Shown here piece after piece: positions 52,419 to 64,000 of a DNA stretch of 64,000 bases. Positions within the stretch are counted from its first letter, which is position 1. Each line of letters begins with the position of its first letter. Position numbers and translations under genes: made by a program. The stretch comes from a bacterium. Its GTDB lineage: Bacteria; Bacteroidota; Ignavibacteria; Kapaibacteriales; Kapaibacteriaceae. The stretch spans positions 73,131 to 137,130 of the forward strand of contig JAWXBR010000054.1 of NCBI GenBank assembly GCA_034440235.1, read 5' to 3'. The notes under the pieces are model-generated. The model ran no database searches, had not been told where the DNA came from, and saw only the letters and a program-made list of their open reading frames with translations.

Positions 52419-52491
52419 CGCGGGGTGGAGCAATTGGTAGCTCGTCGGGCTCATAACCCGAAGGTTGTAGGTTCAAGTCCTGCCCCCGCTA
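52419..52491 (+). tRNA. Initiator tRNA-fMet (anticodon CAU)
   Basis: CGCGGGGTGGAGCAATTGGTAGCTCGTCGGGCTCATAACCCGAAGGTTGTAGGTTCAAGTCCTGCCCCCGCTA. Cloverleaf folds by hand. C1 is unpaired with U72, the anticodon stem has three consecutive G-C pairs, and the sequence is highly similar to E. coli tRNA-fMet. No encoded CCA. Confidence 0.85.
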
Positions 52492-52508
52492 CTTCGAAAA
52501 AATCTAAG

Positions 52509-52547
52509 TCCCTGTAGTTCTAACGAGTTACAGGGATTTTGCTTTTT
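52509..52547 (+). terminator. Rho-independent terminator after the tRNA
   Basis: CCCTGTA-12 nt loop-TACAGGG followed by ATTTTGCTTTTT. Confidence 0.7.
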
Positions 52548-52579
52548 CAGGTGACGGTACAGGTGACGGTTTTTCGAAA

Positions 52580-53284
52580 ATGCTCCCCCAATACGCCAGT
52601 AGATTCGACATGATGAACTACAAAGCGGCACCTGAGTATTTCCTTTCTCTCGAGCAGGAACAGATCATTCAGGATTTGTCGGTTCGCATTGCTGACGAGT
52701 TTATTCCCGACATGAGTAAGCACATTACGAATGCGCAGACGCTCGATGAATTACAAGAACTTCGTGAACACTTTGAGGCCGTGTCGTTGGAGTTCAGACG
52801 TCAGCGTCAGCTCGTTCCTTTAGAGGGACAACTATATCAGTATAGATGGCTCCTAGGTGAGACTTATGGTACTACTGATAGACCGAAAGAACTCCAGGTA
52901 GTTGACAACAACAGGCCTAGGAAGTTGAGCCTATTGGGAAATCACTGGGACGCCACAGTCCTAGCAAGGGAAAACCTCACACGTTTCATCGAGGCTATAC
53001 CGACGCTAGTAGACAGTCTAGACGCACGCGAACGCGAACTAAAACTGGGTCCAAATGCACCTACACCTTATCGCGAACTTGGGCTACTTCTACGCCTATT
53101 TCCGGTTGATCAGCTGATGTCCATAGGCCAGGTTTTAGAAGACCGTGCTGGGACCGCCGATTTACGTCCGTTAAATATGACAAATGCGGCAATCATATTG
53201 AACGAGCTACGCGACCGAATGGATTTCGAGGTGCGTGCTGGATGTAAGATGCATTTCACTCATCAGAAAGGGACAACTAAATAG
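52580..53284 (+). CDS. Hypothetical protein (first gene of the lower-GC island)
   Basis: 234-aa ORF with protein-like composition, no recognisable motifs, and lower GC than the core. Confidence 0.4.
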   Translation: MLPQYASRFDMMNYKAAPEYFLSLEQEQIIQDLSVRIADEFIPDMSKHITNAQTLDELQELREHFEAVSLEFRRQRQLVPLEGQLYQYRWLLGETYGTTDRPKELQVVDNNRPRKLSLLGNHWDATVLARENLTRFIEAIPTLVDSLDARERELKLGPNAPTPYRELGLLLRLFPVDQLMSIGQVLEDRAGTADLRPLNMTNAAIILNELRDRMDFEVRAGCKMHFTHQKGTTK

Positions 53285-62574: not shown

Positions 62575-62993
62575 TGTGTGCCTACGATTAATGAACCTAA
62601 TTTGGGATTAAGTCTATAGACTGGAAACGTCGGACAAAAGTACCCCCTTCCACTAGTCCTCAAGATCAGTATCGTCTACATATTACGCCTGAACGCAGAG
62701 ATTTGACAGCATTCCTTGATGACGCTGATAAAGAAAGCGATCTCAGCGCCGACACATGTAACACGTACCAGATTCATAGAAACTTCGGACTTCAGGTCTT
62801 TGACCCTATTGATCATTACGACCTAGCTACTTTCGCTAGCTATTACGCAATGACAGCCTAAAACACAACGTATCGGAAAGTTACCGTGCTTTACGACAAT
62901 CAATTCAAGAGCCTAGTTGAGAATGCTTTAGACTTCCTAAATCGCTCGTTGATGGAGATTGAGGATTCACCTAAGTTGGAAAATCCGCCCAAT

Positions 62994-63137
62994 GTGAGCA
63001 ACGAATTCCGCCACAAAGTAAGCAATGAATTCCGCGTTAAAGTGAGCAATGAATTCCGCGTTAAAGTGAGCAATGAATTCCGCGTCAAAGTGAGCAGTGG
63101 ATTCCGCGTCAAAGTGAGCAGTGCATTTCGTAGACCA
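62994..63137. repeat. Six tandem copies of a 24-bp unit (minisatellite) upstream of the ATPase gene
   Basis: GTGAGCAATGAATTCCGCGTTAAA consensus. End copies are degenerate and each copy contains GAATTC. On the plus strand it encodes VSNEFRVK repeats fused to a non-repetitive 36-aa N-terminus (ORF 62886..63158). Confidence 0.8.
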
Positions 63138-63226
63138 GGCACGCAACGCTGCACGTGATACGATAGGAAGATTGGTTGACCGGATCAGCAGATTCCGAGA
63201 ACATCACGTTCAAAGAAAGGCTGATC

Positions 63227-64000
63227 ATGGCAAATACACCAATCGCAATGAGTAAACTCAAACAAGTACTGAAGCTGCACCTGCGCGGCAGGAGCAAGCT
63301 TCAGATCAGCACGATGACGGGCGTATCACGCAACACCGTCACGAAGTATATCGCCCACGTGCAGCATCTGGGTTTCACGCTCGAGGACCTGGAGCAGCAC
63401 AATGACCAAGCGCTGGAGCGTTTGTTCTGTCAGGAGCCGCCGCAGGAGATGGACGCACGTGTTGCCGTGCTGCACACGTTTATCCAGAGCAATGACAAGC
63501 GCTTGCGTAAGCGAGGCATGACGCAAGGCCGCTTGTACGAAGACTACACGCAGCAGCATCCTGATGGCTTCGGCAAGACAACGTTCTATCGCCACTATAA
63601 TCTGTGGAAGCCCAGAACAAAGCCGTCGATGCATCTGGAGCACAAGGCCGGTGACAAGATGTTTGTCGATTTCACGGGTCAGAAGATCCCGATGATCGAT
63701 CCGGACACGGGCCAATGCGTCGAAGCGGAATGCTTCGTTGCCATCCTGCCAGCCAGCCAGTACACCTACGTGGAAGCGGTGGCCTCACAGCGCGTCGAGG
63801 ACTTCATCGCATGCTGCGAGCGTGCGCTGCACTATTTCGGTGGTGCACCGGCTGCCATGGTACCGGACAATCTGAAATCCGCCGTGATCAAAACGCACCG
63901 CGATGAACCAACACTCAATGACAACTATGAAGCCTTTGCTGAGCACTACAGCATGGCTGTTGTCCCCGCCCGCTCACGCCGGCCGAAAGACAAAGCCCAC
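63227..64000 (+). CDS. istA: IS21-family transposase IstA (3' partial, runs off the window)
   Basis: N-terminal HTH (MSKLKQVLKLHLRGRSKLQISTMTGVSRNTVTKYI) and start of the DDE domain (FVDFTGQKIPMIDPDTGQ...AILPASQYTYVEA...MVPDNLKSAV). No stop before the window end. Confidence 0.8.
   Translation, partial: MANTPIAMSKLKQVLKLHLRGRSKLQISTMTGVSRNTVTKYIAHVQHLGFTLEDLEQHNDQALERLFCQEPPQEMDARVAVLHTFIQSNDKRLRKRGMTQGRLYEDYTQQHPDGFGKTTFYRHYNLWKPRTKPSMHLEHKAGDKMFVDFTGQKIPMIDPDTGQCVEAECFVAILPASQYTYVEAVASQRVEDFIACCERALHYFGGAPAAMVPDNLKSAVIKTHRDEPTLNDNYEAFAEHYSMAVVPARSRRPKDKAH

Follow-up and report, generated by a model that had tools for sequence, protein, structure and literature searches.

What accounts for a tract of compositionally deviant DNA that begins directly behind a tRNA gene and has no integrase gene beside that tRNA? 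The question is raised by a 64,000-nt stretch of a Kapaibacteriaceae genome (contig JAWXBR010000054.1), referred to in its full length as the window. The region analysed in it comprises positions 52493-64000, 3' of the initiator tRNA gene (tRNA-fMet). The preliminary description of this DNA proposed a tRNA-linked accessory island, either eroded or assembled by insertion sequences (IS), and direct comparison of alleles at the same tRNA supports such an origin. The 3' end of the tRNA-fMet gene is probably the attachment site of a family of integrative elements, and the window would then hold the decayed older occupant of this site after the loss of a newer element.

The loci used for comparison (designated by L and a number) are metagenome contigs, mostly SRR6448210-13, JGI samples 33000201xx/33000202xx and one ENA microbial-mat metagenome. 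The features at the tRNA end of the region are the following.

52419-52492, forward strand: tRNA-Met(CAT), initiator, the single tRNA gene of the window (ARAGORN)
52506-52539, forward strand: terminator-like hairpin followed by a T-run (terminator scan), conserved on the tRNA-proximal arm of each element
52548-52571, forward strand: two tandem 12-bp repeats, CAGGTGACGGTA and CAGGTGACGGTT (TRF)
52580-53284, forward strand: orphan gene 1, 234 aa, the sole element gene remaining in the window
53285-53793, no strand: non-coding gap with 46% guanine plus cytosine (GC), 97% conserved in a sister strain (contig L262)

Alleles at the tRNA-fMet gene

The tRNA had been regarded as an island insertion site, and the close relatives bear this out with variable alleles that diverge at its end. 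At least five arrangements begin exactly after ...CCCCCGCTAC behind upstream flanks that are 97-100% identical to the window, the flank-sharing contigs carrying an identical lipoprotein gene. The divergence point in every allele is the last base of the tRNA, window position 52492. The alleles are:

the window type, found also in L005 and L092
the L093/L088 type
the L002 type
the L003 type
the L007 type

Comparison of the related tRNA-fMet loci, which the preliminary description had advised, revealed no relative with the same gene order; the relatives carry an element of the same kind with other sequence and other cargo. More distant relatives (L099, L101) retain the pheT-tRNA-fMet neighbourhood together with a family element at that tRNA.

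The tRNA is constant across the related loci, with all 74 nt unchanged. Its initiator character is read from the C1/U72 mismatch, A11:U24 and the G29-31/C39-41 pairs of the anticodon stem; the first C alone of the CCA tail is encoded. The last 24 nt of the gene (52469-52492, AGGTTCAAGTCCTGCCCCCGCTAC) are the attachment core of the integrative elements, and elements are bounded by degenerate repeats of them, with 1 mismatch in L002 and 3 mismatches in L262. In these two contigs the second copy of the tRNA 3' end stands beside an integrase fragment (L002) or an integrase (L262). No second copy at up to 3-4 mismatches occurs within the window; the far boundary may lie past 64 kb.

The L002 unit is internally deleted and measures 0.96 kb. 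Starting with the near arm, it continues with a fragment of gene 1 (profile E = 1.6e-12), an integrase fragment and a second set of the 12-mers up to the tRNA 3' end copy that bounds it; another gene 1 follows. The integrase fragment is N-terminal and 52% identical to the L262 integrase; a homologue search with it returned itself alone.

The elements are also found behind different flanks. L096 is from a different species, with 78% identity between its RNase Y gene and that of the window, and its remaining flank has no nucleotide match. From the first tRNA base onwards, L096 and L091 are 99.97% identical over 6886 bp, and the first 218 bp of this shared stretch occur also in L003, which has the flank of the window species. 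Since L091 and L096 are so nearly identical despite the divergent flank of L096, the elements appear to move between species.

An intact element in the sister strain

The sister-strain contig Ga0163150_10003184 was obtained by joining L093 and L262 via an identical 4900-bp overlap. L262 was located through a cluster look-up that placed a 127-aa gene 1 copy on the same 23.5-kb contig as L093. Between the tRNA and window-like DNA this contig carries an intact element of 18,566 bp with a GC content of 46.0%. The order from the tRNA is the hairpin with two CAGGTGACAGTT repeats, gene 1, the HTH_17 gene, the Toprim-DUF3987 gene, cargo, an MmeI-like restriction-modification gene and the integrase. 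The latter (410 aa; Arm-DNA-bind_5, SAM_5 and Phage_integrase domains) is of the tyrosine type, is oriented back toward the tRNA and lies 18.4 kb from it. A CAGGTGACAGTT pair sits 10 bp 5' of its start codon, and about 120 bp past that pair stands AGGTTCGATTTCTGCCCCCGCTAC, the last 24 nt of the tRNA with the three mismatches mentioned above. Past AGGTTCGATTTCTGCCCCCGCTAC follow the window-type hairpin, CAGGTGACGGTA repeats, gene 1, the gap and the hydrolase gene, 97.0% identical to window 52468-55206.

The module behind the arm is common to L093, L091/L096, L099, L101 and L102 and consists of gene 1, the HTH_17 gene, the Toprim-DUF3987 gene and a gene for a small HTH_3-like protein. Gene 1 of the complete modules (259-300 aa) has no Pfam, PHROGs or PADLOC match. 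The HTH_17 protein is AlpA/excisionase-like and matches the PHROG 'excisionase and transcriptional regulator'; the Toprim-DUF3987 protein (about 611-686 aa) combines a zinc finger, Toprim and DUF3987. The PHROGs matches of the element genes are confined to integrase, excisionase and primase. Cargo past the modules includes IS fragments, an MmeI-like enzyme, type I HsdR, GmrSD, an EcoRI-type methylase and SocA. On contig L095, which has no tRNA, the genes for HTH_17 and Toprim-DUF3987 accompany GmrSD and a type ISP enzyme. Two further large cargo genes of L093 (7387-11551; 558 aa and 745 aa) have no Pfam or PHROG match and are candidate novel cargo, possibly defence genes.

The preliminary description was correct in stating that no integrase adjoins the tRNA: none, nor any other recombinase, was detected in the whole window by a Pfam scan of the large open reading frames (ORFs) and the gap ORFs, or by tblastn with the family integrase. 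As the integrase is placed at the tRNA-distal end in this element family, none is to be expected beside the tRNA. Similarity to HTH_17 and Toprim-DUF3987 was likewise found nowhere in the window, which makes the window copy a relic and not a full member of the family.

Viral contigs do not represent the family. The tRNA 3' end 24-mer occurs at 79 loci in IMG/VR, none with the hairpin-plus-12-mer layout, and matches of the primase-helicase profile in viral contigs were confined to the Toprim domains of phage primases.

The tRNA-proximal arm

The variants share one arm layout: a spacer of about 13 nt, a hairpin with an 11-bp stem, the T-run and two tandem variant-specific 12-mers. In the 7 hairpin variants, the stem positions are paired in 100% of cells, with compensatory changes in 5 of the 11 pairs; when the partners were shifted by one to three columns as a control, pairing was merely 27-58%. 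The 12-mer is CAGGTGACGGTA in the window, CAGGTGACAGTT in L093, CGTAGGCAGATT in L002 and CTGGGTGGCAAT in L003/L091/L096; the distant relatives L099 and L101 have TGGCTTACGGTT and TGGCTTACGTTT, respectively. In L002 and L093/L262 the element's own 12-mer recurs on the far arm just 5' of the integrase start. No further copies of the window 12-mer were found elsewhere in the window. Repeats that stand on both arms and differ where the N-terminal arm-binding domains of the integrases differ follow the pattern expected of arm-type sites, and the 12-mers are regarded here as putative arm-type integrase binding sites.

The hybrid junction

The first 90 bp after the window tRNA are a hybrid of the two junctions of the sister-strain element. 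In a three-way alignment the window agrees with the attL side up to 52508 (spacer TTCGAAAAAATCTAAG) and, from 52536 through GGGATTTT, GACGGTA and the whole of gene 1, with the attR side. The change-over falls within 52509-52535, a 27-bp hairpin stretch that is identical in the attL and attR sides. One stem pair of the hairpin is G-C in attL and A-U in attR, and is present in the window as the hybrid G-U. Precise excision by the integrase would leave the attR-side spacer AAGAATAAATCTAAAT; the hybrid differs from it, and homologous recombination between arm modules fits instead. Judging from the alignment, the element was apparently lost when two arm modules of about 100 bp, present as direct repeats, underwent homologous recombination.

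Gene 1 and the adjoining gap

The gene 1 protein of the window is identical to NCBI MDZ4746389.1 (locus tag SGJ05_10360). It shares 27-28% identity with gene 1 of L088 and L091 (tblastn E = 1e-24) and matches the family profile at E = 9e-21 over positions 6-243 of 300. No Pfam, PHROG or PADLOC match was obtained for it, and a homologue search returned the protein itself alone. Single-sequence structure prediction gave a mean pLDDT of 46, too low for a fold search. The gene 1 copy of the sister strain is frameshifted (127 aa). A nonsense pseudogene was considered for the window copy and dropped: the in-frame tail past TAG 53282 aligns with two homologues in tblastn, and against the family profile it yields E = 0.04, which is not significant.

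The gap behind gene 1 had been thought to hold remnants. This was not confirmed, as neither the Pfam search of its ORFs nor comparison with family proteins was positive, and nothing in 53285-53793 resembles the family integrase, excisionase or primase.

Composition of the region

The features that follow the gap are listed below, with the GC content at third codon positions (GC3).

53794-55194, reverse strand: secreted alpha/beta hydrolase, EstD-like (Pfam, NCBIfam); GC3 0.19
55196-55534, reverse strand: DUF5808 small membrane protein (Pfam E = 2.4e-9), sharing the low-GC segment with the hydrolase; GC3 0.28
about 55743-57274, forward strand: IS3-family element (Pfam, NCBIfam), its right end approximate and placed by inverted-repeat symmetry; GC3 0.58-0.59
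55820-56230, forward strand: IS3 orfA (Pfam, NCBIfam)
57328-59826, reverse strand: HD-CE + GHKL (HATPase_c_3) protein, 832 aa (Pfam HD-CE E = 1e-53, HATPase_c_3 E = 1.4e-10); GC3 0.44
59908-62574, reverse strand: AAA_13/ABC-type ATPase, 888 aa, PDC-S06 (PADLOC full length E = 2.2e-189; Pfam AAA_13); GC3 0.47
62630-64000, forward strand: left part of an IS21-family element, its left end approximate; istA from 63227 and past the window end, GC3 0.70

Gene 1 (52580-53284) has a GC3 of 0.49, and eight upstream genes taken as the reference have 0.53-0.58. The drop in GC downstream of the tRNA, noted earlier by eye, is real: the content falls from 51.2% to 45.0% in 52493-64000 (z = -7 against core windows of the same size) and to 42.4% when the two IS are excluded. 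The hydrolase gene, placed in the low 30s by the preliminary description, has 31.8% (z = -12), and the DUF5808 gene has 31.6%. The corresponding values are 41.5% for the HD-CE gene (z = -7.8), 47.7% for the PDC-S06 gene, 53.6% for IS3 and 56.3% for istA. Rather than one island, the region is a mosaic in which at least five pieces can be told apart by their composition.

Proposed history of the locus and rival explanations

Under the explanation given at the outset, an element would integrate by means of a tyrosine recombinase, with the crossover in the final ~24 nt of the tRNA, and its tRNA-proximal arm would bring its own hairpin, two element-specific 12-mers, gene 1, HTH_17 and the primase-helicase. 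Successive integrations would stack in tandem at the tRNA. The window would represent the older occupant, located downstream; its counterpart in the sister strain is found on the far side of the 18.6-kb element. A newer, L093-like element would have been deleted together with its integrase through recombination of the repeated arm modules, and the old occupant would have decayed, keeping its arm and gene 1. In the order that we infer for the later acquisitions, the patchwork would have grown by the low-GC hydrolase/DUF5808 segment, IS3 (inactivated afterwards), the two-gene defence module and IS21. These segments may have come in with the old element or through IS activity.

Several points weigh against this history. 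The right end of the region is past the window, which stops inside IS21; the DNA shortly after 64 kb could contain an integrase, further CAGGTGACGGT repeats and a copy of attR, and the old occupant would then be less decayed than supposed. Gene 1 may still function, as its conserved core (the matched profile positions) is whole. The evidence for the hybrid junction consists of about eight informative sites in 45 bp, and such a junction could also arise via gene conversion between alleles, with no deletion. An operator function at gene 1 and int is another possibility for the 12-mers. The assignment of contigs to strains and species is by flank identity alone.

The strongest rival is that 52493 to beyond 64000 is one still-integrated island with its integrase, arm repeats and attR just past the window. 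The distal position of the family integrase in the intact example is in keeping with it, as are the complete tRNA-proximal arm of the window and the intact core of its gene 1; other alleles are likewise devoid of an integrase within 7-14 kb. It is nevertheless unlikely, considering that HTH_17 and Toprim-DUF3987 follow gene 1 in 5/5 complete modules and have left no trace here, and that the composition classes, at least five in number, span GC3 values of 0.19-0.70. Furthermore, the sister strain shares 52468-55206 only and then continues into another IS, its gene 1 is frameshifted, and the IS3 of the window is damaged.

The possible operator role of the 12-mers is part of a second rival, in which the hairpin is the tRNA's own terminator and the alleles differ by homologous replacement, with no site-specific integration. 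The hairpin does resemble an intrinsic terminator, and the position of the 12-mers before gene 1 and int would suit an operator. This explanation is very improbable in view of the two contigs in which the last 24 nt of the tRNA, and these alone, recur in degenerate form exactly at the far edge of a unit ending in a tyrosine integrase or its fragment; besides, alleles always diverge at the last tRNA base, and the identity of L091 and L096, contigs of different species, starts at the tRNA and extends for 6.9 kb at 99.97%. Least credible is an assembly artefact in which the contig jumped between strains across the hairpin or IS copies: the sample does contain several strains, repeated modules and a multi-copy IS3, the attL-side and attR-side modules do share the identical 27 bp, and the right IS3 junction (about 57274) and 56702-58192 have no independent contig, but the junction is not such an artefact because L005, from a different sample, and L092 reproduce 52461-52600 exactly, and contigs 100% identical to the window cover 52436-54542 (L092), 55506-56701 (L264) and 58193-62650 (L001).

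With the decayed older occupant retained as the preferred explanation, an island beside a tRNA with no integrase is accounted for by direct evidence rather than by assumed decay: distal integrase, tandem stacking and arm recombination would together remove a live element and strand its older neighbour. A set of attL, attR and scar sequences is now available, and the initiator tRNA locus is the place to seek strain-specific defence genes in this poorly known uncultured lineage. The general understanding of how genomic islands work is unchanged.

Cargo of the region

The gene content named in the preliminary description (IS3, IS21 and a candidate defence cassette) is in agreement with Pfam, NCBIfam and PADLOC.

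The nearest named relatives of the hydrolase (53-63% identity) belong to Dysgonamonadaceae, Chitinophagaceae, Cytophagales and Bacteroidota metagenome-assembled genomes (MAGs). Judged from these matches, the hydrolase is foreign and of Bacteroidota type, and its GC and GC3 values mark it as not adapted to the host. Its segment is common to both strains and is therefore older than the strain split. In the sister strain, the N-terminus of an IS30-like transposase (MASRYQHVTQPQRYTIEKMLQARMTQRAIARAIGVST, L262 12618-12825) stands 12 nt 5' of the hydrolase ATG, in place of DUF5808. Exact look-ups of the hydrolase and HD-CE proteins found neither on record.

The IS3 element has the hallmarks of its family, i.e. 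orfA and orfB in the -1 frame, a DDE (rve) domain and terminal inverted repeats. Its orfB is split into 56227-56727 and 56600-57241 by a 4-bp insertion (CCGC, 56691-56694) within the DDE domain, and because of this break the element is probably inactive. The insertion is shared by the independent contig L264. A copy in L263, 98.3% identical, has an intact orfB of 320 aa, and the same IS3 occurs at the end of the L091/L096 contigs. No clear target-site duplication was found in the flanks GAA / AAT, and a plasmid search with IS3 gave distant IS3-family matches only.

Between IS3 and IS21 lies the putative defence pair, two genes of one strand with the HD-CE/GHKL gene 81 bp downstream of the PDC-S06 gene. 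The HD-CE/GHKL gene has no model of its own in PADLOC, where PDC-S06 is listed as a single-gene candidate; judging by the gene arrangement, the two may form a two-gene system.

The left end of IS21 is located about 55 bp 5' of the PDC-S06 start codon. The N-terminal 257 aa of IstA match NCBIfam transpos_IS21 (E = 7e-59), and the rest of istA and istB lie past the window. A different IS21 is present in L003, with 49% protein identity to that of the window. The independent contig L001, identical over the PDC-S06 gene, stops at 62650; a look-up of the PDC-S06 protein yielded short Logan contigs only. In the interval from the left end of IS21 to the start of istA, a 24-bp unit, CAAAGTGAGCAATGAATTCCGCGT, occurs in 5.8 tandem copies with 90% identity (62990-63127, TRF); these repeats could be multiple transposase-binding repeats or an unrelated minisatellite.

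Upstream DNA and the tRNA promoter

The 52.4 kb upstream of the tRNA have the GC content of 51.2% given above. This DNA had been described as housekeeping, which holds as regards uppS, RNase Y and pheT; the four genes closest to the tRNA are hypothetical. Two of them are ORFs of 347 aa and, overlapping, 315 aa (the latter annotated with 260 aa in the related contigs), and the other two encode a DUF1801 protein and a lipoprotein. The DUF1801 and lipoprotein genes are separated by a small indel polymorphism of 173 bp (51325-51497, within a 97-aa ORF at 51257-51550), which contigs L002, L003 and L006 of the same species do not have; in L093 about 44 bp of this stretch are missing. A gene for a SUKH-4 immunity protein (40648-41484) stands amid housekeeping genes near a GC dip to 45.5% at 42001-43000, and the two may mark a small insertion of polymorphic toxin/immunity genes into the 'core' DNA of the window.

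The closest PheT in a species-level genome collection is 64% identical and belongs to an Antarctic Candidatus Kapaibacteriota MAG, the contig of which ends at pheT and yields no empty site. The window PheT (45828-48605) has 925 aa, compared to 805-812 aa in L096/L099 and about 800 aa in most matches; the match to the Kapaibacteriota MAG extends over about 899 aa. The length points to an insertion specific to the lineage or to an ORF that was called too long.

Ten nucleotides 5' of the tRNA, at 52402-52409, the window has TATCTTTG. It matches the Bacteroidota -7 promoter motif TAnnTTTG, in agreement with a Kapaibacteria/FCB-group placement. A sigma-70 scan flags TTGCCA-16-TATCTT at the tRNA promoter as well. 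Directly 5' of the tRNA-fMet promoter, short tandem repeats occur in L097/L098 (1-75; about nine 8-mers like GAAAGGGC) and in L101 (about 60-200; heptamers like GTACCCC/GTACCCT). No such repeats precede the tRNA in the window.

Comparison with known systems

Of the features by which tRNA-linked islands are recognized, the window displays the location at a tRNA 3' end, variable presence and deviant composition (GC3 of 0.19-0.49 versus 0.53-0.58). It has no far repeat of the tRNA 3' end and no integrase, both of which are present in sister contigs (L262; L002, with the integrase as a fragment). As for the features of the element family itself, the window possesses the covarying hairpin with the 12-mers and the gene 1 homologue, and lacks HTH_17/Toprim-DUF3987.

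The 888-aa AAA_13 protein is a full-length match to PDC-S06, a system that is itself a candidate only. The literature naming PDC-S06 merely inventories it among defence systems, and no functional test was found there. The window differs from the PADLOC definition in the HD-CE/GHKL gene downstream, which PADLOC does not model.

P4-like satellites and CP4-57-type prophages of Enterobacteria have the order int - alpA - primase or YfjI, with a tyrosine integrase at the 3' end of a small-RNA gene. Their integrase adjoins the tRNA or tmRNA gene, their defence cargo is variable, and they frequently decay to relics. The tRNA-fMet elements resemble them in the tyrosine integrase acting at an RNA-gene 3' end, in AlpA/HTH_17 beside a primase-helicase or DUF3987 (YfjI), in the variable defence cargo and in the frequent decay to relics. 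Unlike in P4-like elements, the integrase is placed at the opposite end from the tRNA, and the host phylum differs. No capsid-hijacking or packaging genes of the kind that P4-like satellites and PICIs direct at helper phages were found in a PHROGs scan, and no relatives in IMG/VR viral contigs.

A Bacteroidota element described in Seonamhaeicola (pAgo/AgaPP) carries its integrase at the end opposite to the tRNA, encodes a DUF3987 helicase and HTH proteins, has a GC content below that of the host, and gains and loses defence genes (PMC11724360). The DUF3987 protein of this mobile element was shown experimentally to be a 5'->3' helicase (PMC11724360). The intact element of the sister strain has the same layout. 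The tRNA-fMet system differs in that Toprim is fused to DUF3987, whereas the Seonamhaeicola element encodes a separate AEP primase and a PriCT-DUF3987 protein; in that the target is tRNA-fMet; and in a cargo of restriction-modification, PDC-S06 and similar systems, not pAgo. The window, in contrast to the Seonamhaeicola element, keeps no replication or integration genes.

Tandem accretion at tRNA genes yields stacked elements and partial tRNA copies; the older elements lose their integrase, and deletions occur between the repeats flanking att sites. The locus described here departs from the usual case in that the scar is still readable, as a hybrid hairpin with a G:U pair derived from G-C and A-U parents.

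The kind of system is thus already known: tRNA-targeted elements with a DUF3987 module and defence cargo, subject to tandem accretion and decay. The case for an undescribed family within it is evenly balanced. Such a family would occupy tRNA-fMet in Kapaibacteria-like bacteria of Antarctic mats and be distinguished by its own hairpin, 12-mers co-varying with the arm-binding domain, a family-only gene 1, HTH_17 and a fused Toprim-DUF3987. Its elements would move between species, act as main carriers of restriction and defence genes and be removed by recombination between stacked copies, leaving orphan cargo with no integrase.

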